DNA from: a virus
Strand: one strand, 5' to 3'
IMG/VR virus record: IMGVR_UViG_3300030122_000023
DNA: 42,281 bases
Shown here: piece after piece, positions 2,296-41,094 of the stretch
Layout: the number at the start of each line of letters is the position of its first letter
Numbering within the stretch: position 1 is the stretch's first letter
The notes under the pieces: generated by a model
Database searches by the model: none
Told to the model about the DNA's origin: nothing
Seen by the model: the letters and a program-made list of their open reading frames with translations, nothing else
Translations under genes and position numbers: made by a program

Positions 2296-4022
2296 CAGAT
2301 CAGCACATCTCCTCCCGTATATAATTCAACTCCGGCGAAGTAATTTTCCGTAACAACTACTGAATACCCCCTGCACGTTGCCGTTGCGATAAATCCACCG
2401 GTCAAATCAAGCGTCTGGCTCTCAATCAATGTTGTCGATGTCTTGCCACCGATGGAATTTATATTCGCCCAATTTCCTACCTGCTCTAAGTCAACCAGGT
2501 ACTTCATTCCCACCTTTTTTCTCAAGGCATGATAATCCAAAAGATAAGCGGCGATATCAGGTAATATATCAGCATTATAAATGGTGCATCCACTGTACTT
2601 CTTTATATTTTCTGTCTCTCCAGCTTCGATTTTATCCACACGTTTCTCATAAGAAAAAGTGGTATTTGCATATTTAATACCTGTGATCTGGCACTGTCCG
2701 GCATCCGGCATGTTAATGATGAGATAATTTGTTTTTACTTCTTTCAGCGTGCCGACACTTGCCGTGATGGACGATGGAAGATATGGACTTGAGAATGTGA
2801 TCTTGGTATCTCCGGCCGGCAATGTTTTCTTATAAATGTCTGAGTTTTTTTCTTCCAATGCATAGTTTTTCATCTCAATATTCACACCAGAGATATATTT
2901 TTCAAGAGATACTTTCGTATTTCCATTAAATTTGCGATCCGTCCCGACAGTGGATTTCACATATCTGTCTGGCTTATAAACCTTGATGGTATCGCTCCGG
3001 CTGTCATCCGCAACCGCACCACACGCAAAGCATACCTGTTGCAATGCCTTACGGCACGTCTGGATGGCTAAATAGCCACTTAAAAGTGTGTTACCTACTT
3101 CTTCATCAATTACATATTTTTTTATTCCTGCTGTTACAAATATCGCATTCAGTATCACTTCTGCACGGACATTGTTATATACCTGTCCGTCATAAAATGT
3201 ATACTTATCTAATAAACCAACTTCATCAACCAGCTTAAATTTTGCAATATTCTTTGAAAAAGAAAAGTCGTTGATGAAGAATGCTCCCATAGGAATCATG
3301 TTTCCGTTCTTAAACTCTGACAATGTGACTTCCTGCGTTTTCTGCACACTCTTCCACGCTCCATTTTCGTTTTCTGCATCAAAATCATTATTCATATCAA
3401 CAATTGAAATATCCGCTTCGTTGATAGACAATGTTGCAGAGGTCACATCAATGTCTTCCTGCACCTTGGCTGTCTGGATCATATCCTTATCCCACACGAT
3501 ATATTTTCCGTATAAAATGTACTGAAGCTTAATATATCTCTTTGGAAAGCTTGTTCTTACAAATTCAATCTCGATTTTTCCATAATTCTGCACCTGATTA
3601 TTGCAAACATAAATAAGGCTGTCCGGGTAAAATGTTTCTGTGATTAATTTTGTACCGGCGATTGTATACCATGTGATTTTCAACTCTGCTGGTGGCTCAT
3701 CTTCAAAATAAAGTGTGATCGCTGCGGACGTGTGCTGCTCTTGGAACGTGACTGTAATCTTAGGATCTTTTTCAAAAGTACAATCTTCCTTCGATAACGC
3801 ATCATTCCAAAATGCAATGTCTTTCGGATTTTCCGTCAATACGCTTTTACTTCCATCTAGCACAAATTGGTTCAGTTCAAAAGTCCCATAACTTTTCTGT
3901 TCCGTCTGGTCTGCAAACAACTCAACTGAACCTATGCCCTGGTTATCATCTGTCGTAACCGTGGCATCTGATAATGCGGTAACATCTATAAATTTCATTT
4001 CTGCCCTGCAATATGTTCTCAT
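2295..4022 (-). CDS. Tail tip / baseplate hub protein (Tal-like)
   Basis: 575-aa ORF two genes downstream of the tape measure. RBS AAGGGGG lies 5 nt upstream of the ATG. Confidence 0.5.
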   Translation of the reverse strand: MRTYCRAEMKFIDVTALSDATVTTDDNQGIGSVELFADQTEQKSYGTFELNQFVLDGSKSVLTENPKDIAFWNDALSKEDCTFEKDPKITVTFQEQHTSAAITLYFEDEPPAELKITWYTIAGTKLITETFYPDSLIYVCNNQVQNYGKIEIEFVRTSFPKRYIKLQYILYGKYIVWDKDMIQTAKVQEDIDVTSATLSINEADISIVDMNNDFDAENENGAWKSVQKTQEVTLSEFKNGNMIPMGAFFINDFSFSKNIAKFKLVDEVGLLDKYTFYDGQVYNNVRAEVILNAIFVTAGIKKYVIDEEVGNTLLSGYLAIQTCRKALQQVCFACGAVADDSRSDTIKVYKPDRYVKSTVGTDRKFNGNTKVSLEKYISGVNIEMKNYALEEKNSDIYKKTLPAGDTKITFSSPYLPSSITASVGTLKEVKTNYLIINMPDAGQCQITGIKYANTTFSYEKRVDKIEAGETENIKKYSGCTIYNADILPDIAAYLLDYHALRKKVGMKYLVDLEQVGNWANINSIGGKTSTTLIESQTLDLTGGFIATATCRGYSVVVTENYFAGVELYTGGDVLI

Positions 4023-19157: not shown

Positions 19158-20855
19158 TTAATCCTCATAATCGTCACTGTCTTCTTCCTCATCATCATAA
19201 AGACCGTCATTCCTTCGGCTGGTCATGATGATCCTGTTCAGTGCATAAATGTTAGCCATGATCGTATCCTCTTCTAAGGTCGGGTAAGCATCCGAGAATG
19301 AACCATCTGGAAGCTGCTCATGCTCTGCCTTTGTAAACTCTTTTTCTGTATTCGGGCAACGTTCTGGATCAATGACAATCTTATTGCATCGCTGAAGCCA
19401 CTCCCAGCAGTAATCCCTTCCTTTTCCGCTTCCCCATCTTTTCTTTGCCCCGATCGCATTGAATCCCCATTCCTGCATCTCTGCTATTCCGTCCGGTCTG
19501 GCAGAATCGCATATAATCTCGACATTCATAAATTTCTTTATCTTCCTGGCAAAGGTAGAGTTTTTACATTTTTTAGAATACACTTCGCCAAAAATATAAA
19601 GAGTGTCCGTCTCGTAATCGTAATAGTTCTGGCTGAACACCTGTGGGTGTGTGTATCCGAAGTCCAAACCGTGGTTTACTGTGTCAAATGTCATTAACTC
19701 CTCATCCGATATTTTTCGGATTTCTAAATTGTCGAAGATGCCGCCGCCTGTTCCAGTGACTTCTCCGAGATAATTATTTTTATAATATAATGGTTTATGA
19801 ATCCTGAACCACTCCGCACGCTCGAAGAATCGCTTTCCAAGCCATTTCACAGGTACATTATAATAATAACTGTGGCAGATCCGTGTCTGTGGCTTATTTT
19901 TACACTCTTCGGTGTACTCGTTCATAAAGTTATTTTTTGACTTCGGAGGATTGAAAATTTTTATGTCAAGTGCTGGTGTATCTGCTCGCAAAAATGTATC
20001 CTCTATGTTATCCATCTGCTCCACACCTGCCATCTCGTCGCACTCTTCATGGATCAGCATCTTAACATATCCGAATGGCACGTTGAAAGATTTTAAGCTG
20101 ATAGGCTTATCAGCTCCCACGAACATTACCATCTGCCCGGTCGGCTTATACACCGCACACATCGGAGACTGCTTAAAGTCCCAGTTATCCAGATCATTAC
20201 ACCGGATCACCACCTTCATAAACTGATTATAAACAGATCCTCTCAAGTCAATCTTATATCGTCTTGTGTATACGATATGCGCCTGAGGATCCTGTCTGAT
20301 CGTCTCATATGCAAGATTCCCCCAAAAATTGGACTTAATAGAACCACGCCCACCCTTCGATATGATCTCGTGTATGTCTATCTCTCCGGCAAAAGCTTCA
20401 TGCACTGTCCGGTATATCTCCACAAAGTCGGATGTAATGTCCGTGATCGGGATCGTCCAGAGTGCCGATTTCTCTCGCTTTTCCTTTTCCTCTCGCTCGA
20501 TCTTCTGCTTTTCTGCTATGGTCAGTGCCTTTTCCAAACCGTCCATTGCCTTAAGCTGATCGGAGAAATCTGGAGAGAATCCGAGACCGTCCACGACTTC
20601 GCCCTTTGCGATTTTACTTCTTCGCTCTTGGATGTCAGCAAGGCTCATAATGTCCCGGTGCTGTTCTTTCTCGATGCGATCCATTTTTTCCGCTATATAT
20701 TCTGTAATGACAGTTTTTGACAGCAGTTTTTGTGCGCTTCGATTCGCTCCATTCTCGCTATAGCCTGCGCTTATGTATGCCTGTGTGGCATTTCCGCCAT
20801 TCTTTATATACTCGTCTGCAAATGCTTTCTGTTTCGGTGTGAGTTCTCCCTTCAT
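19158..20855 (-). CDS. Terminase: small-subunit (Terminase_2-like HTH) domain fused to a PBSX-type large subunit
   Basis: Residues 1-130 (LTPKQKAFADEYIKNGGNATQAYISAGYS...) are TerS-like. Walker A KGGRGSIKS sits at about residue 167, followed by a ~400-aa TerL body. There is no stop between the two parts. Confidence 0.8.
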   Translation of the reverse strand: MKGELTPKQKAFADEYIKNGGNATQAYISAGYSENGANRSAQKLLSKTVITEYIAEKMDRIEKEQHRDIMSLADIQERRSKIAKGEVVDGLGFSPDFSDQLKAMDGLEKALTIAEKQKIEREEKEKREKSALWTIPITDITSDFVEIYRTVHEAFAGEIDIHEIISKGGRGSIKSNFWGNLAYETIRQDPQAHIVYTRRYKIDLRGSVYNQFMKVVIRCNDLDNWDFKQSPMCAVYKPTGQMVMFVGADKPISLKSFNVPFGYVKMLIHEECDEMAGVEQMDNIEDTFLRADTPALDIKIFNPPKSKNNFMNEYTEECKNKPQTRICHSYYYNVPVKWLGKRFFERAEWFRIHKPLYYKNNYLGEVTGTGGGIFDNLEIRKISDEELMTFDTVNHGLDFGYTHPQVFSQNYYDYETDTLYIFGEVYSKKCKNSTFARKIKKFMNVEIICDSARPDGIAEMQEWGFNAIGAKKRWGSGKGRDYCWEWLQRCNKIVIDPERCPNTEKEFTKAEHEQLPDGSFSDAYPTLEEDTIMANIYALNRIIMTSRRNDGLYDDEEEDSDDYED

Positions 20856-21837: not shown

Positions 21838-22146
21838 TTAATCCTCTAAAAAATAAAGTATATCTTCTGTAATATCTTCGGTTTTATAAGCCTTTGTGTA
21901 ATCGATCATGTCGAGTTCCTGATCCGGCTGCACATTATAATAAACCTTATAAATTTTATCATCAGTCACCATGTACTGATAAAACTCATCTCCATCCCAG
22001 CACTCTGCATTTCCGATGATTCTGATTTTATCGTAATTTTCAACATCGCCGTTTTCAGATTCTACTGTTAATTTCTGTAATGGGAATTTTCTCAATTCTC
22101 CATAATTTTCCTCTAACCATTTGTTAAAAAGCTCTGTTCTACTCAT
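21838..22146 (-). CDS. Hypothetical acidic protein
   Basis: 102-aa ORF, tightly packed in the operon. Confidence 0.5.
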   Translation of the reverse strand: MSRTELFNKWLEENYGELRKFPLQKLTVESENGDVENYDKIRIIGNAECWDGDEFYQYMVTDDKIYKVYYNVQPDQELDMIDYTKAYKTEDITEDILYFLED

Positions 22147-22183
22147 TTTTTTATCTCCTTTTTTTAATTAATGCTCTAGGTTT

Positions 22184-22438
22184 TTACTGGTCAATTTCCG
22201 GTAAAAATTCTCCGGTGTGTAATTCTTCCGCAACGATCCTGTACGCTTTTCGGATTGTGCTGGCTCTATTTACCAGATACTCCCAACCCTGCACGTCTTT
22301 TTCTTTCCAGTCTCCCATGTACTCGGCTTTCACTTCGTCATCAAGATTAATAAAATCCATGATGTCTGTGTCATGTCTGTTTTCAATTTCTGCGATCATT
22401 TTCTGTAATTCCTGATAACATTTTTTTAATTCTTCCAT
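22184..22438 (-). CDS. Hypothetical protein
   Basis: 84-aa ORF. Confidence 0.5.
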   Translation of the reverse strand: MEELKKCYQELQKMIAEIENRHDTDIMDFINLDDEVKAEYMGDWKEKDVQGWEYLVNRASTIRKAYRIVAEELHTGEFLPEIDQ

Positions 22439-22452
22439 CTTTTTATCCCCCT

Positions 22453-22665
22453 CTAAGCTCTTTCTCTTAAGTCTTTAACCGTAAAGTTTTTATAAAACTC
22501 CTTATATTTTTCAAATGTGTTCTCTTTGCTCCAGTTCTTTTCTGATCCGTTTATGTTTTCAAAATAGTTTTTATCTCTCTCGTATAAAAGATGTAAAAGC
22601 TCCTCACGTTTCATTTTTTTTATTTCTGTTTTTGAATAACTGTAAATGTTTCTTGATTCTTCCAT
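22453..22665 (-). CDS. Hypothetical protein
   Basis: 70-aa ORF. Confidence 0.5.
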   Translation of the reverse strand: MEESRNIYSYSKTEIKKMKREELLHLLYERDKNYFENINGSEKNWSKENTFEKYKEFYKNFTVKDLRERA

Positions 22666-22766
22666 CTTTCTTTTCCTCCGTGTGTTGTGTTTTCCTTGTT
22701 TCTGATATTATAATACACCATTTCCGGTGTACTGTCAATACCTTTTTACATTATTTTTAAAGTATT

Positions 22767-22979
22767 TTATTTTTTCTCATTTTCTACATATTTAATAATG
22801 TTTCCCGGCTGCATATCCAGAAGTGTACATATCTTCTCTAATGCGATGATCCCGACCATGTCGCCACGCCTTAGCGTCTGGATTGCGTTTTCTCCCAAAA
22901 GCTTTTCTTTTCTCAGCCGTGACGTGGTGTATCCGCTTTCTTTCAGCGTTTCTAATACATTTATTTTATAAGTAAGCAT
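22767..22979 (-). CDS. Small XRE-like HTH protein
   Basis: 70 aa; LKESGYTTSRLRKEKLLGENAIQTLRRGDMVGIIALEKICTLLDMQPGNIIKY is a typical short Cro/CI-type HTH. First gene after a consensus promoter. Confidence 0.65.
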   Translation of the reverse strand: MLTYKINVLETLKESGYTTSRLRKEKLLGENAIQTLRRGDMVGIIALEKICTLLDMQPGNIIKYVENEKK

Positions 22980-23009
22980 TGTTTCGCACCTCTCTTTCCT
23001 TTAAGGGAA

Positions 23010-23038
23010 TTATAAATGATTTTATAATCGTTTTCAAG
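23010..23038 (-). promoter_or_regulatory. Near-consensus sigma-A promoter (TTGAAA-17 nt-TATAAT) for the HTH-led operon
   Basis: Read directly on the minus strand; -10 at 23010..23015 and -35 at 23033..23038. Confidence 0.65.
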
Positions 23039-23052
23039 CGATTTACATTATA

Positions 23053-23092
23053 AATAATGCACAAATATTGTCTATTAATTATGCATTATTTT
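23053..23092. promoter_or_regulatory. 10-bp inverted repeat (AAATAATGCA / TGCATTATTT) between divergent promoters; candidate operator
   Basis: Perfect dyad at 23053..23062 and 23083..23092. Confidence 0.5.
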
Positions 23093-23108
23093 TGGTGTAT
23101 TTGTATAT

Positions 23109-23137
23109 TGCAATTACACCGCTTTTAATGTATTATA
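23109..23137 (+). promoter_or_regulatory. Orphan plus-strand promoter (TTGCAA-17 nt-TATTAT, TG at -15/-14)
   Basis: Read directly. No convincing CDS downstream; AGGAGGG at 23147 has no start codon at a usable distance. Confidence 0.5.
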
Positions 23138-23412
23138 ATATTAACAGGAGGGCAAAAAAAGAATTAACAGAGGTTTGCGGAACTTATGAAAGCGACTGCT
23201 CCAGATGTCCGAAGAAAACAGAATGCGATGAGTATAATTCGATATTTGCACAAAATAGCCGAAATGCTCCGCCCTGGAGAGTCCACCGTGGAACGGTCGC
23301 CCGGTGCTGACGATGGAAGACCAGAAAGGGAAAACATGAAAAATTTAATTGGAAACAACTTGAAACGGCTTTTTATTTTTATCTTGCGTATTTTGCCAAT
23401 ACAGACTTTTTT

Positions 23413-23551
23413 ATGCGTGCGTGGTATTTTTATCCTATGCGTGATAAGAAATCCGTCTATGCGTGTCATGCGTGCGTTATGCGTGCAGTTTAAAATAATA
23501 TGCGTGTGTCTATGCGTGCAGTTCTATGCGTGAATCAAAGCATTATGCGTA
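23413..23551 (+). repeat. Array of direct (T)ATGCGTG repeats: 8 perfect copies plus 1 variant (ATGCGTA), same orientation
   Basis: Copies start at 23413, 23437, 23459, 23468, 23479, 23500, 23512, 23526 and 23545. Outliers at 23628, 23731 and 23784. Confidence 0.9.
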
Positions 23552-23768
23552 ACTGTCCGTTGCTTTCTTCTTCGTACAAGCTCCGGCTGTTGAGCATCAT
23601 TAATGCCATTTTCTTTTTTCTGTAAAAATGCGTGCGTGAAATCGGCATAATCCCATAGCGTGCTTCCATTTTGTCATATGAGATATTATTTAAAATTGAT
23701 TCTGCTATTTTATCGCCCAGGTAATTGTCTATGCGTGTGCATATCTCTATCGTTTCCTCTCTGCTCAT
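23535..23768 (-). CDS. Short sigma-region-4/ArpU-C-terminal-like HTH protein (candidate late regulator)
   Basis: 77 aa; ISYDKMEARYGIMPISRTHFYRKKKMALMML resembles the HTH tail of ArpU/RinA-type regulators. Confidence 0.45.
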   Translation of the reverse strand: MSREETIEICTRIDNYLGDKIAESILNNISYDKMEARYGIMPISRTHFYRKKKMALMMLNSRSLYEEESNGQLRIML

Positions 23769-23949
23769 TTTAAAAACCTCCCCATGCGTGGCGCCTAAGT
23801 TTCTTACAACATTATACCATATATCAGTTCATAAAAACACAATATATTATCTTATTCATGCAACATTATTATATTTTTATTCATTTAATCATTGTTCTTT
23901 GATATGTATTTTTTTACCGGCATATTTCAGCCGGCAAAAATCTCAATAT

Positions 23950-24255
23950 TCAGTTTTTATCGCATTCCCGGAATAAGTCAGCGTCTATATATTTCCATCC
24001 ACCATCATAGATCATGAAATATGTATAATGCTGTGTTCTGACAATGTCATATACCGTAAACTTCTTATTGTCACTGTTTCTGATTACCTCAAACGTAATT
24101 CCGCCTATTCGCTCATTTTCTCTCCGCCGCTCTCTGTCGGTCTTAATTTCCTCACAATAGCAGCAACCTTCACAGTCACCATCACAATCTGCATTCGAAA
24201 TGTCGTCTTCCTCCATATCTTTACGCCACATTTCCATACAATTACAGAATCTCAT
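23950..24255 (-). CDS. Cys-rich hypothetical protein
   Basis: 101 aa with CDGDCEGCCYCEE. Confidence 0.5.
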   Translation of the reverse strand: MRFCNCMEMWRKDMEEDDISNADCDGDCEGCCYCEEIKTDRERRRENERIGGITFEVIRNSDNKKFTVYDIVRTQHYTYFMIYDGGWKYIDADLFRECDKN

Positions 24256-24281
24256 TGTTTTTACCTCCGTTAAAGTTCAGT

Positions 24282-24644
24282 TTAGTTATTTTTCTCAAAA
24301 TAGAAAACAACCGGCTTTTTATTCGGTATCACCAGTCCAAACCTCACAGCATTTTTGTATGTATTACTATCACGCATTAAAGTATCAGGCATAGCAGCAA
24401 CCATTTTCCGAAAACCTTCCAGTGTAGATCTACTCTTATAATGATTGCAGCTTCGGCAAGCAGGAAGCATATTGTCAACCGTGTCTGTTCCCTGTTCGCT
24501 CCAACCATTCAGAGGTATTACATGATCCACCTGCATATCTTTGTATTCCAAGCTGCATCCGCAATAAGCGCAATGTCCATCGCATTTCTGATATATTGTC
24601 ATTCTAATGCTTTTTGGTATTGCCTTTCTCTTATTCACCATCAT
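24282..24644 (-). CDS. HNH endonuclease
   Basis: CAYCGCSL...VDHVIPL...DNMLPACRSCNHYK. Confidence 0.8.
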   Translation of the reverse strand: MMVNKRKAIPKSIRMTIYQKCDGHCAYCGCSLEYKDMQVDHVIPLNGWSEQGTDTVDNMLPACRSCNHYKSRSTLEGFRKMVAAMPDTLMRDSNTYKNAVRFGLVIPNKKPVVFYFEKNN

Positions 24645-25043: not shown

Positions 25044-26756
25044 CTACGCAAACCGGAGCTGTCCGGTCTGCTCTGCTTCCATCCTCATGTTCGGTGTTCG
25101 TTCCGCAATACACAGTTCTGGCAGATTGGCTCTAACCAATGCTGCTGGTATCGGTGGACACACTGCATTTCCGCATCTTCTGACCTGCTCACTTCTCGGA
25201 TATGTCTTTCCTGTGTAGTCATGGTCGATTATGTAATCGTCTGGGAATCCCTGGCATCCGTAAAGTTCTTTCGGCTCAAGCATCCTCAATCCTATGTCCA
25301 CAATCTGGTAATCTACACCCTCAATAGTCACAAGTCCAAATCTATCTCTGGATGTAACTGTATCAAGAGGTTCCTCAATGTCCTGTCCGGTTCCCTGCCC
25401 ATAATATTTAATTAAAAATGCTCTTACTTCTCCGAAGTGACCATCCCCAGCGGTTATTGTTGGTATAGGATCACGTAAATCTCGCCCATCACAATGGTTA
25501 TTCATCTGGATAAGATTTGCCGTAACTACACTGTTATGATCCCACGCTGTTACTGTAGGTAGCGGATTTTCTAATGTATCGCCTGCGCCTTTATATCCAC
25601 CATCGTAGTACTTTTGCAGGAATGATGCGACCAGTCCATATCTGTTTGAGCTGTCCACTGTCATGATCGGATCTTCTATAGTCTGTCCTCTTACTCCATC
25701 TTTTGAGGTTTCTGAATGGTACTGGATCAACGTAGGACTTATCAGGCAATGCTCATTTTTACTCACAATGGTTGTAAGCGGCTCCCGGACATCTTTGCTC
25801 CGGTCTTTTGTAAAACCTGTCTGTCCGATCTGCACCATATATGGCTCTACAATCCCATACCCATATTTTCCGGTTATAGTCGGCATCGGCTCTCGAATGT
25901 CGTTCGGTCTACGCTCACCACCATGATTGCACTGAATGATAAAAGGCTCTGGATTATCCAGAATGAATTTTTTAAATCCCCTTGCTATCCTATCCATCGT
26001 CTTTTGTGCCAGCGGTCTCACTGCCCGGATTCCGTATTTTTCTTTTATTTCTTCTGAAGTATCGAAGATACTCGGACATGGCAAGGAAAAATCTAACTGT
26101 GTGTATGCTCCAACATATGGTTTGAGCAATCCTTTCTTGACTTCTTCACTGTCTGCCGGTGCGTGTGTCGGCTCTGGCCAGACAATCGTCTTGCCGTCAC
26201 ACCTGGCGATCATGAAAAATCTCTTTCGCATGGTAGGTGCTCCGTAGTCAGCGGCAATCAGCTCCCGAAATTCCACTTTGTATCCCATATCAGTAAGCTG
26301 CTGCACAAATTTTTCAAAAGTCTTACCCTGCTTGCTCTTAATTGGATGATGCCGCCTGTTTAACGGTCCCCATGTCTTAAATTCCTCTACATTCTCAAGC
26401 ATGATAACCCTTGGTCTTACAAGCCCCGCCCATCTTAAGGCTACCCATGCAAGACCTCTGATATTTTTATCTTTTGGTTTTCCACCCTTTGCCTTGCTGA
26501 AATGCTTGCAATCTGGGGAAAACCAGGCAAGTCCAACCGGATGCCCATTGCAAGTCTTGACAGGATCAACCGCCCACACATTTTCGCAGTAATGCTCTGT
26601 ATTTGGGTGATTAGCTTTGTGCATCTTAATAGCTTCTGGATCATGATTGATTGCGATATCAACACTGTATCCGGTTGCCATTTCTATACCAGTGGAAGCG
26701 CCGCCCCCACCAGCAAAATTGTCAACTATCAATTCTCCATGTATCATTTTCTTCAA
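25044..26756 (-). CDS. DNA (cytosine-5)-methyltransferase with six tandem ~35-aa internal repeats
   Basis: Motif I DNFAGGGGAS, motif IV SPDCKHFS, motif VI ENV, C-terminal QGFPDDY...GNAVCPP. Repeats span residues 272-478. Confidence 0.85.
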   Translation of the reverse strand: MKKMIHGELIVDNFAGGGGASTGIEMATGYSVDIAINHDPEAIKMHKANHPNTEHYCENVWAVDPVKTCNGHPVGLAWFSPDCKHFSKAKGGKPKDKNIRGLAWVALRWAGLVRPRVIMLENVEEFKTWGPLNRRHHPIKSKQGKTFEKFVQQLTDMGYKVEFRELIAADYGAPTMRKRFFMIARCDGKTIVWPEPTHAPADSEEVKKGLLKPYVGAYTQLDFSLPCPSIFDTSEEIKEKYGIRAVRPLAQKTMDRIARGFKKFILDNPEPFIIQCNHGGERRPNDIREPMPTITGKYGYGIVEPYMVQIGQTGFTKDRSKDVREPLTTIVSKNEHCLISPTLIQYHSETSKDGVRGQTIEDPIMTVDSSNRYGLVASFLQKYYDGGYKGAGDTLENPLPTVTAWDHNSVVTANLIQMNNHCDGRDLRDPIPTITAGDGHFGEVRAFLIKYYGQGTGQDIEEPLDTVTSRDRFGLVTIEGVDYQIVDIGLRMLEPKELYGCQGFPDDYIIDHDYTGKTYPRSEQVRRCGNAVCPPIPAALVRANLPELCIAERTPNMRMEAEQTGQLRFA

Positions 26757-38411: not shown

Positions 38412-38774
38412 ATGCAGAACCGATTAAAGCAAATAAGAAAAAAATTAGGTTGCAACCAGAATGAATTTGCAGAAAAACTCGGTATATCAGTTTCCAATAT
38501 ATCTAGCTATGAAGCAGGAAGAAGAAATCCGTCTGATGCTGTTATAAATCTGATATGCGAAAAATTTAGCGTCAATAAGGAATGGCTAGAGACCGGAAAA
38601 GGCGAAATGTTCATTCAAAAGACCGAGAATGAAAAGATAGCTGAATTTCTTGCAGATGTACTGAAAGCCGGGGAAAAAGACCAGCGGTACAGATTCATAG
38701 CCGCTATCTCAGAACTGGATGAAAACGACTGGAACACAATCCAGAAGCTGGCAGAAAAGCTTGTGAAGAAGTAA
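38412..38774 (+). CDS. XRE/CI-type phage repressor without a peptidase domain
   Basis: LKQIRKKLGCNQNEFAEKLGISVSNISSYEAGRRNPS. 120 aa, no S24 Ser/Lys domain. RBS AGGAGGTGA upstream. Confidence 0.8.
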   Translation: MQNRLKQIRKKLGCNQNEFAEKLGISVSNISSYEAGRRNPSDAVINLICEKFSVNKEWLETGKGEMFIQKTENEKIAEFLADVLKAGEKDQRYRFIAAISELDENDWNTIQKLAEKLVKK

Positions 38775-39753: not shown

Positions 39754-41094
39754 ATGAACATAGCAATTTATCCAAGGAAATCAAAAAAAGATGATAATTC
39801 AGAATCAATGGAACAGCAAATAGACGATTGTAAAAAGTACATTGATAAAACTTACCATAATGCAAATATAATCGTTTATTCTGGCGATTATGCGATCACA
39901 GGGCATAGCACGGCAAAAAGAAAGGACTTTCAGCGCATGATGGATGATGTCAGAGCAGGAAGAATCAATGCAGTTGTCATTATGAGATACGATCGTATAG
40001 CAAGAAATATGAGAGATTTCTGTAACCTCTATCACGACATGGAAAGCGCAGGATGCAACTTAATATCAGTGAGTCAGCAGATCGATACTTCCACGCCATA
40101 CGGAAAGAACTTCATGTACCAGATGGCAAACATGGCAGAATTAGAATGGGCGGTTATATCTGAGCGATACAAAGACACCGCAGCTTATAAAATCCGTGAA
40201 GGGAAAGCTTACACTGGCAGAGTGCCCATAGGATTTAAAATAGAGAAAATAGATGGTGTAAAGAAAGTCGTACATGATAATGAGGAACAGACAAGGGCTA
40301 TCTTTGATTATTTATTAGCAACCAAAAGCAAGCGCGGCACTGTTTTATGGGTACGTGAAAATTTGATTCCAGACTTCACACGTCACAAATTAGACACAAT
40401 GATAAATTCAGATTTATATATTGGTAAAGTAAGGGAAAATGAAAATTTCTGCGAACCTTATTTTACCAAAGAGCAAATGGAAGAAATAAGAAGTGTCAAT
40501 CAGATAAAATACGCTCCGTCCGGTCATATATATCTATTCAGTGGGTTATTCCGCTGTCCTATATGCGGCAGGAAAATGGCAAGTTTTTATAGCATAGACA
40601 GGAAGACCAAAAAGCACAGGCAATATCAAAGATGCTGGTTTGGTGGAAATGAGAAATTGCACAAAACAAAATTAGTGTCAGAAGCAAAAACAGAAAAATA
40701 TCTTCTTGAAAATCTTGATGCAGCATTAAAAAATCTTGAATTTGATGTAAAAAAAGAAGCAGGTAAACCAAAGCGCAATTTGAATAAGAAACTTAATGAT
40801 GCAATAGCGGAGCGTGACAGACTGAATTACCTTTTTGAAAAAGGAAGAATTGATATTCCAGAATACGAAAAGAAATACAGTGTCTTATCAGAAAAAATAA
40901 ACTCCATAAATGAGGAGTTGTCAAACAACAAAGTTGTAAGGATTGAGGAATTTAAGAAGCAGATACCGGAAGACTGGAAAGTCCTTTACGAACAACTAGA
41001 TCCAAAAGGAAAACAAGAGTTTTGGCATAGAATAATAAAAGAAATTTATTTGAATGAAGCCTTTGAAATTACTGGCTTTATATTTTATATCTAG
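39754..41094 (+). CDS. int: Large serine recombinase (integrase)
   Basis: N-terminal resolvase-type catalytic domain (AIYPRKS...), recombinase domain, zinc ribbon CPICGRK and coiled-coil C-terminus; 446 aa. Confidence 0.85.
   Translation: MNIAIYPRKSKKDDNSESMEQQIDDCKKYIDKTYHNANIIVYSGDYAITGHSTAKRKDFQRMMDDVRAGRINAVVIMRYDRIARNMRDFCNLYHDMESAGCNLISVSQQIDTSTPYGKNFMYQMANMAELEWAVISERYKDTAAYKIREGKAYTGRVPIGFKIEKIDGVKKVVHDNEEQTRAIFDYLLATKSKRGTVLWVRENLIPDFTRHKLDTMINSDLYIGKVRENENFCEPYFTKEQMEEIRSVNQIKYAPSGHIYLFSGLFRCPICGRKMASFYSIDRKTKKHRQYQRCWFGGNEKLHKTKLVSEAKTEKYLLENLDAALKNLEFDVKKEAGKPKRNLNKKLNDAIAERDRLNYLFEKGRIDIPEYEKKYSVLSEKINSINEELSNNKVVRIEEFKKQIPEDWKVLYEQLDPKGKQEFWHRIIKEIYLNEAFEITGFIFYI

Follow-up and report, generated by a model that had tools for sequence, protein, structure and literature searches.

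The IMG/VR virus record IMGVR_UViG_3300030122_000023 is a stretch of 42,281 nucleotides (nt), here called the window, and is the genome of a temperate siphovirus-like phage with almost all of its genes on the minus strand. The locus of interest lies at about positions 23,146 to 23,551. In the original prediction, this locus was described as an orphan plus-strand transcript that reads into an array of direct ATGCGTG repeats, in a region of about 550 bp without convincing genes. The GC-rich stretch and the repeats that follow it are real. What had gone unrecognised is that the stretch is, by its match to the Rfam database, a type II hammerhead ribozyme. On the opposite strand the repeats adjoin a small gene, called p77 here, that encodes a protein of 77 amino acids (aa). 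It appears that two independent elements meet at this locus, a decayed cassette with a hammerhead and a p77-linked array of DNA recognition sites that is like the repeats of late-gene activators. This reading is offered tentatively, with a little less than even confidence.

The heptamer array and the p77 gene

Eight perfect copies of ATGCGTG are present on the plus strand within 120 bp (23413..23532). They start at 23413, 23437, 23459, 23468, 23479, 23500, 23512, and 23526, and the start-to-start spacings are 24, 22, 9, 11, 21, 12, and 14, exactly as had been claimed. On the minus strand, which is the strand of p77, the heptamer reads CACGCAT and the extended unit is often CACGCATAGA. Three further plus-strand copies (23628, 23731, and 23784) and a variant, ATGCGTA (23545), had also been reported and were found again. 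Elsewhere in the window only two copies remain, both in the opposite orientation. Counting both strands, there are 13 copies of ATGCGTG in the window versus 4.48 +/- 1.96 expected, and none of 100 shuffled sequences reached 13.

The p77 gene (23535..23768, minus strand) was taken from the list of open reading frames (ORFs) and its product was modelled with AlphaFold2. The model has a predicted local distance difference test (pLDDT) score of 89 and consists of three helices, with a pair that is like a helix-turn-helix (HTH) and a basic third helix. The array copy nearest to p77 begins 3 nt past the TGA stop codon of the gene. The variant (TACGCAT, 23545-23551) is in the last codons of p77 (L-R-I), and two CACGCAT copies (23628-23634 and 23731-23737) are within the coding sequence as well. 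The remaining copy (23790..23784) is in the leader, immediately 5' of the Shine-Dalgarno (SD) sequence GGGGAGG. Leader and promoter were read from the sequence (23777..23842, minus strand), with a -35 element TTGTGT (23842..23837) and an extended -10 element TGGTATAAT (23819..23811).

The array was followed through 77 non-redundant related contigs that have enough sequence downstream of p77. At least two heptamers past the p77 stop codon were found in 69 of the 77, exactly one in four, and none in four, with 0-8 perfect downstream copies over the whole sample. The three copies in and before the p77 gene are kept in 74 contigs. In the array-bearing relatives the start of the array at the p77 stop codon is constant. 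One relative, L155, has the DNA upstream of p77 replaced exactly up to the leader heptamer, and thus marks a boundary of a module that runs from the leader heptamer through p77 to the array. By these alignments, the array belongs to p77 on the opposite strand and is independent of the plus-strand transcript.

The copies themselves are better conserved than the DNA between them. Core columns of the heptamer are 98.9% identical, versus 89.0% for the spacers (48 distinct arrays, P = 4.5e-4). Spacers between the copies are 2-17 nt long and differ in sequence. Because they vary in both length and sequence, the array is not a simple product of slippage. Among relatives the spacings cluster at 9-14 or 19-22 nt and spacings of 16-18 nt were never seen, which suggests that the heptamers lie on roughly one face of the helix, about one or two turns apart, with the caution that the arrays compared are non-independent samples. 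A 115-aa ORF covers the repeats and had been set aside as translated repeat. This was correct, as its frame is not kept in the relatives; indels of 1 nt and of other lengths that are not multiples of three occur between the copies, and the array is thus non-coding. The heptamers inside p77 are also not dictated by the protein, because distant homologues encode the SRTHFY peptide with different codons and without the heptamer.

Such repeats could be functionless, minisatellite-like DNA that arose by local duplication in a recombination hotspot. The copy number among very close relatives would fit this explanation, since it ranges from 0 to 8 perfect downstream copies (at most 10 if one-mismatch variants and the stop-proximal copy are added). 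Larger blocks have been duplicated, for example ATGCGTGCAGTT, which is present twice, and the array is dispensable in a few contigs. Duplication does not account well for perfect conservation of the cores between spacers of differing length and sequence, for spacings that avoid 16-18 nt, or for isolated leader and coding copies that persist in 74 of the 77 contigs without being forced by the protein. The explanation is considered improbable.

A second, iteron-type origin of replication had also been proposed. Like iteron origins and partition centromeres, the array consists of clustered direct repeats, is non-coding, and is next to a gene for a small, putative DNA-binding protein. Iterons are usually 17-22 bp long, regular, and located beside an initiator gene and an AT-rich unwinding region, whereas the units here measure 7 bp, have uneven spacing, and lie about 3 kb away from the replication module. 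The origin proposal was not upheld. Unlike partition systems, the phage integrates by means of a serine recombinase and no partition genes are present in it. A scan of viral contigs for three clustered ATGCGTG motifs found, beyond the close relatives, only unrelated regular tandem repeats with a period of 9, 18, or 27, most of them coding. An unrelated IMG/VR contig without a p77 homologue (L102) has seven ATGCGTG copies in 70 bp (2961-3031) with a strict 10-bp period, which could form an iteron-like array in some other element. Arrays of the VIPR-type vrRNA kind may be interspersed with hammerheads (bioRxiv 10.64898/2026.04.26.720920). They were ruled out for this locus, as the alternating GGY/NN pentamer pattern is not present.

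A hammerhead ribozyme in a decayed accessory cassette

The hammerhead (23257..23325, plus strand) matches Rfam family RF02276 over model positions 1-66 of 66, at 45.0 bits, above the gathering cut-off of 37; over the whole window, E = 3.6e-6. Homologous ribozymes of the relatives are near-identical copies and score 55-65 bits, above the copy in the window. When 22900-23900 was scanned with Rfam cmscan at a permissive E-value, the hammerhead was the only credible match and nothing was found on the array; matches to small nucleolar RNAs and microRNAs were noise. In the Rfam alignment the core nucleotides are present, namely (C)GAAA, then stem III, GUC followed by C, and CUGAcGA. Stems I and III are capped by loops and stem II is open, which is the type II topology. 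Self-cleavage is predicted to occur after GUC, between 23283 and 23284. Loop I (GGUC, 23296-23299) can pair by inspection with the 3' tail (GACC, 23319-23322), a pseudoknot that is typical of type II hammerheads (PMC3088659).

Some features of the window copy weigh against a fully working ribozyme. Its stem III contains a U.G pair at 15.2/16.2 and a G.A mismatch at 15.3/16.3. In relatives with a 74-aa ORF ahead of the ribozyme, stem III pairs perfectly. Stem II has 2 bp in the window versus 3 bp in the relatives. An extra U between A9 and the first pair of stem II is found throughout the clade. Because of the G.A mismatch, the 2-bp stem II, and the extra U after A9, the activity of the window hammerhead is uncertain.

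Prophage hammerheads flank variable, exchangeable genes (Perreault et al., 2011; PMC3088659). The ribozyme described here resembles them in its core, capped stems I and III, and pseudoknot, and also in its placement between small interchangeable genes of unassigned function. The intact arrangement is found in four relatives (L149, L160, L162, and L196), where the promoter is followed by gene 1 (74 aa), the hammerhead, genes 2 and 3, an intrinsic terminator, a short spacer, the array, and the convergent p77. Gene 1 is interchangeable and can be either a 58-aa Cys-rich ORF or a 74-aa ORF, with the switch point at the ribozyme. Gene 2 exists in three unrelated versions of 53-71 aa and has an SD sequence and ATG right after the hammerhead, and gene 3 encodes 60 or 103 aa. 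None of the cargo proteins has a match in Pfam or PHROG.

The two versions of gene 1 meet the ribozyme in different ways. In the 74-aa variant, the stop codon abuts the 5' end of the ribozyme (L001 6750-6752). In the Cys-rich variant the last 16 codons overlap the ribozyme and the stop codon is within the CUGANGA box, which is unlike prophage type II hammerheads; in the window the TGA (23308-23310) supplies U4, G5, and A6 of that box. Positions 23257-23310 of the ribozyme are thus also coding in this variant. Self-cleavage would yield a message without a stop codon, and a translating ribosome would unfold the ribozyme. It is possible that translation and hammerhead cleavage are coupled.

In the window, the cassette has decayed. 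The strong AGGAGGG (23146-23152) had been noted for having no start codon nearby, and no in-frame start codon follows it. Alignment to the relatives identifies this SD sequence and the DNA behind it (23146..23310, plus strand) as the remains of the 58-aa Cys-rich ORF, with a start-less remnant at about 23155-23310. Relatives L008 and L011 encode the ORF (MERIEEFEKELTEVCGTYESDCSRCPKKTECDEYNSIFAQNSRNAPPWRVHRGTVARC) with its ATG. The AGGAGGG lacks a start codon because the ATG and the first eight codons of gene 1 have been deleted, as judged against L011. Gene 2 is also represented by a remnant (23325..23351, plus strand), with an SD sequence AAAGGGA, an ATG (23336-23338), and about four codons (MKNL...). 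Positions 23257-23351 align to L160 5109-5016, and the same ATG opens a 71-aa ORF in L160. In the window, this frame continues into the repeats and is not conserved.

After the gene 2 remnant, a junction and spacer (23352..23412) were placed by alignment to the relatives. Positions 23383-23560 align to L160 4371-4209, and also to L142 and L188. The part of the spacer at 23383-23412 (cttgcgtattttgccaatacagactttttt) is kept alongside the array in every cassette type. Missing from the window are 645 bp of L160 with gene 2, gene 3, and the terminator (GCCGCCGG..CCGGCGG). With these deleted, the plus-strand transcript now enters the repeats. On neither strand of 22000-24500 were terminator-like sites found. 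The claim that no plausible coding sequence follows the promoter therefore holds for the window, where the cassette is decayed, but not for the relatives, in which an intact 58-aa or 74-aa ORF precedes the ribozyme and one or two genes follow. From these alignments, the orphan transcript is the leftover of an accessory, "moron"-type operon. The window copy of the ribozyme is unlike prophage type II hammerheads in being stranded in a decayed cassette, with a start-less ORF upstream and deleted genes downstream. In L006, L002, and L003, the cassette promoter has no -10 element and no palindrome, and the ribozyme and array are retained, which adds to the evidence of cassette decay in several lineages.

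If the ribozyme is active, it would cut the polycistronic RNA between the genes of the cassette. The upstream message would receive a 2',3'-cyclic phosphate end and the downstream RNA would carry a 5'-OH and have the stem I hairpin at its start. In Firmicutes, the glmS ribozyme and RNase J1 illustrate the fate of a downstream RNA with a 5'-OH. By analogy, the RNA downstream of the cleavage site may be a target of decay, or may be shielded by its terminal stem I hairpin. In the window, the ribozyme would be the only element that forms a 3' end, because the terminator is deleted, and residual transcription would continue into the repeats.

A plus-strand promoter had been claimed, and a sigma-70-like site that would serve the cassette is indeed present (23108..23139), with a -35 element TTGCAA (23108-23113), a -10 element TATTAT (23131-23136), and a spacing of 17 nt. 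The match is modest, 9/12 in the promoter scan. A TATAAT (23134-23139) overlaps the -10 element. Further along is a gene for a 70-aa Cro/C1-type HTH protein (22767-22979, minus strand; Pfam HTH_26, E = 1.9e-8), and beyond it a leftward promoter, TTGACA-17-TATTAT (22738..22710, minus strand), which scores 11/12. The promoters that flank the HTH gene face outward and are inverted paralogues (TTGACA/TTGCAA ... TGTATTATAAT). A palindrome, TACACY-N6-RGTGTA, is found in the spacers of both. It is perfect in the leftward promoter (TACACCATTTCCGGTGTA, 22714-22731) and degenerate in the cassette promoter of the window (TACACCGCTTTTAATGTA, 23115-23132); in relatives L001 and L011 it is perfect. The palindrome is probably the operator of the 70-aa HTH_26 protein, which would control both the leftward operon and the accessory cassette. 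This layout of two promoters is reminiscent of Aca-type control of anti-defence genes.

The array had been proposed as a binding site for either of the adjacent HTH proteins. For p77 the proposal is the best supported one, as 7-nt direct repeats begin 3 nt past its stop codon and are co-inherited with it. The case for the 70-aa HTH protein is weaker. Among the relatives this protein differs (72-100% identity) or gives way to another while the heptamer is constant, and the candidate palindromic operator fits it better. In some relatives, such as L005, a gene for a 79-aa HTH protein and a putative GIY-YIG homing endonuclease, the latter assigned only by reading its sequence, replace the 70-aa HTH gene about 465-872 nt upstream of the ribozyme on the minus strand. 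The array is unchanged there.

Other layouts of the cassette are also present among the relatives. These include opposite-strand cargo that ends in a terminator without a ribozyme, same-strand cargo, and a plus-strand promoter fused directly to the array. Some relatives have a terminator after the array and then opposite-strand cargo. The ribozyme is present in 39 of the 77 contigs and absent from 38; in 14 it is parted from the array by genes and a terminator. In 25 contigs, the window included, promoter and ribozyme read directly into the array, with the ribozyme in the place that a terminator takes in other relatives. Judged by this comparison, the array forms the constant left edge of a hypervariable hotspot for insertions, which extends to the 70-aa HTH gene. 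The adjacency of ribozyme and array is, on the same comparison, an accident of cassette insertion and deletion in the hotspot.

This bears on whether the repeats act in RNA. The plus strand could give an AUGCGUG sponge or an antisense RNA to the p77 message, as had been suggested, or CACGCAU in the p77 message could serve as a platform for protein binding or for loading of Rho. All copies are within the single p77 transcription unit, and the 25 contigs just mentioned would transcribe the array from the plus-strand promoter without a terminator. The minus-strand RNA of the array is C-rich and unusually unstructured (z = +3.3), which resembles a rut site. Rho does not need an exact heptamer, however. 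Shuffled sequence folds at least as well as either strand of the array (plus strand, z = +1.1), no Rfam family covers the array, and no candidate RNA-binding protein is encoded nearby. The array is also kept where a terminator stops plus-strand read-through, where the cassette is missing, and in L006, where the promoter is deleted.

With CsrB and RsmZ, the known sponge RNAs, the array shares only many copies of a short motif in a region that is possibly transcribed. Unlike them, it does not present GGA in the loops of hairpins, folds no better than background, and lacks a cognate RNA-binding protein, and it is kept in relatives where a terminator protects the plus strand from read-through or where that strand lacks a promoter. 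The proposal of a sponge or antisense RNA is not borne out, as the array occurs without the ribozyme cassette in 38 of the 77 contigs, has no fold above shuffled sequence, and is read through only by way of a deletion. An action in RNA is considered very improbable. More speculative still is the idea that p77, the expanded array, and the convergent transcript ended by the ribozyme form a previously undescribed switch. An AUGCGUG-repeat RNA with a 5'-OH, antisense to the 3' end of p77, or its transcription through the p77-bound array, would then tune the level or the DNA occupancy of a mini-activator and couple accessory (possibly anti-defence) genes to the timing of late genes. Very little confidence is placed in this idea.

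Likeness to late-activator repeats

The closest likeness was found with the Ltr-type late activators of phages that infect Gram-positive bacteria. RinA, LtrC, and ArpU recognise two to four direct 7-nt repeats that are immediately distal to their own genes, and experiments showed these repeats to be necessary and sufficient for the specificity of the activator (PMC3753634). In phage 80alpha, as read from its sequence, TGGCAGT is present twice, 11 nt apart, starting 5 nt past the rinA stop codon. Like the genes of Ltr-type activators (RinA, LtrC, ArpU, LtrA/sigma70_r4, and LtrB/DUF1492; Quiles-Puchalt et al., 2013, PMC3753634; Ferrer et al., 2011, PMC3152322), p77 is a small gene at the end of the early region and upstream of the terminase. 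Its repeats are likewise exactly 7 nt long, direct, in one orientation, about one helical turn apart, and right after the stop codon, and the block is co-inherited with the gene.

The p77 protein belongs to the family phrog_11237, whose members are about 75-80 aa long and have no Pfam family. Homologues with 35-51% identity are always located between early or methylase genes and the terminase in prophages of Lachnospiraceae and in Roseburia phage Jekyll. This slot was seen in 11 Lachnospiraceae genomes, about 60 viral contigs, and phage Jekyll, and a promoter-like site follows each of these genes. The best Pfam match of p77 is to the C-terminal, DNA-binding half of DUF1492 (LtrB), and is below threshold (E = 0.028, 15 bits versus a cut-off of 21.5). 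The match to phrog_248, a "transcriptional activator", is also below threshold (E = 0.07). A search with p77 against PDB sequence profiles gave no match. The label "ArpU-like" given to p77 in the original prediction could not be verified.

On the model of these activators, the heptamers would be DNA recognition sites for p77, and several p77 molecules would bind to roughly one face of the helix. The heptamer in the leader could provide autoregulation of p77. The downstream array could form a platform of several p77 proteins that influences transcription of the packaging and morphogenesis genes.

Several observations weigh against this interpretation. The p77 protein itself could not be placed: nothing exceeds the cut-offs in Pfam or NCBIfam, hhalign gives 0.7% probability against RinA of phage 80alpha, and a Foldseek search of PDB and BFVD with the p77 model found nothing below E = 0.39. 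In the protein databases, identities to p77 drop from at least 88% straight to at most 51% without intermediate relatives. The genes of the distant homologues come with promoters, but comparable repeats do not follow them and hammerheads are absent. The array-bearing contigs are all close relatives, and contig counts therefore overstate the independent evidence.

The likeness to Ltr systems is also incomplete, and this counts on the same side. In place of two to four repeats there are eight downstream copies and four in or before p77, and the protein has just 77 aa and no significant similarity to any Ltr family. The array is not followed by a terminator and a terS promoter; a variable cassette and a second HTH gene intervene, and the terminase is 2.5 kb away. 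No activated promoter adjoining the array was located. Just past the array a TTGGMA element is conserved on the minus strand, but its distance to a -10-like hexamer varies among cassette types, and no promoter is claimed there. The first good minus-strand promoters are 340-400 bp beyond the array, past the cassette, and look like strong constitutive sigma-70 promoters, one of them with a putative operator for the other HTH protein. Lastly, unlike in Ltr systems, some relatives survive without downstream copies. At least four contigs (five loci in a separate count) have lost all of these copies together with the cassette and look like intact phages, and the eight-copy array is thus dispensable.

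Given these points, the array might instead bind another protein, either a host regulator that recognises direct repeats with a phasing of about 11 bp (such as a response regulator of the OmpR/PhoB type) or a phage protein, and act as an insulator or roadblock against convergent cassette transcription into p77 and the early genes. The single orientation, the spacings near one or two helical turns, and the conserved cores would suit such a protein as well, and p77 cannot be assigned to an activator family. The copy number also follows the cargo, with a median of 6-7 copies where cargo is directed toward p77, 4 where it is co-directional, and 0 where there is none. Relatives that have a proper terminator before the array still hold seven copies, however, and a roadblock is unneeded there because the terminator already precedes the array. 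The heptamer matches no known host motif. The leader heptamer, p77, and the array form a tight module, which together with the intragenic copies points to p77. Binding of another protein is regarded as unlikely.

A role in DNA packaging or recombination would give the heptamers a different function. The array could be part of a pac-type region used by the terminase, or with p77 as a specificity factor, or it could be a Chi-like cluster that halts an AddAB-type exonuclease. It is upstream of the packaging genes, which include a PBSX-type fusion of the terminase subunits TerS and TerL, and an HNH gene is nearby. Weak matches to a small-terminase PHROG (E = 0.03) were found for 2 of 29 p77-family members. 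The heptamer resembles the lactococcal Chi sequence GCGCGTG, and short repeated boxes are found at the pac sites of SPP1 and P1. The strict single orientation would suit Chi. Clusters of Chi sites at the genome end occur in other phages (PMC12315714). Against this, the array is 2.5 kb and six genes from the terminase, and relatives without a downstream array are hard to square with an essential pac site. For Chi, the helical phasing and the copy in the p77 leader would have no role, and the heptamer is not enriched elsewhere in the phage, where the other two copies are oppositely oriented. This explanation is held to be distinctly unlikely. Recognition by p77 is still preferred; the array is a probable activator-site array of a known kind, by analogy with the Ltr repeats, attached to an unannotated small protein family.

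Phage setting and significance

On the minus strand of the window the gene order is C5 cytosine methylase (25044-26756), HNH endonuclease (24282-24644), p77, then TerS-TerL and portal; the methylase and the HNH gene were identified by a Pfam scan. Also encoded are an amidase, a CI-type repressor (38412-38774), and the serine recombinase mentioned above (39754-41094). The terminase (19158-20855, minus strand) is a single 565-aa protein in which a Terminase_2 small-subunit domain (residues 5-123) is fused to a Terminase_3 large-subunit domain. Relatives and phage Jekyll have the same fusion, which carries a PBSX-family annotation in Jekyll. Within the block of structural genes is a gene for tRNA-Ile (anticodon TAT; 11964-12037, minus strand).

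Closest to the window are MT835516, a phage contig from human faeces, and many gut contigs in IMG/VR. More distant p77 homologues are found in prophages of Roseburia, Lachnobacterium, Acetatifactor, and Waltera, and in phage Jekyll. Because these are Lachnospiraceae prophages and a Roseburia phage, the host is probably a Lachnospiraceae bacterium. A prophage in a Roseburia metagenome-assembled genome (L219) has a match to the Streptococcus small RNA SpF41 (RF02435; 5342-5442, plus strand; 71.5 bits versus a cut-off of 52). It is directly upstream of the small gene that precedes the terminase, and no counterpart was detected in the window.

The puzzle of an orphan transcript with repeats resolves into two recognisable elements, and a follow-up on sponge RNA, which the comparative data do not support, can be spared. 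The ribozyme is, by its Rfam match and the alignments, a new copy of a known class in a decayed cassette. The relatives provide a natural series of hammerhead accessory operons, from intact to decayed, in which the ribozyme is exactly at the exchange points of small genes of unassigned function. In some lineages it takes the position of the terminator. The series should be useful for asking what purpose prophage hammerheads serve, a question that has been open since 2011. The phrog_11237 proteins are an unannotated family found across Lachnospiraceae and are candidate regulators of late genes in phages of the human gut, with CACGCAT(AGA) as a motif that can be tested.

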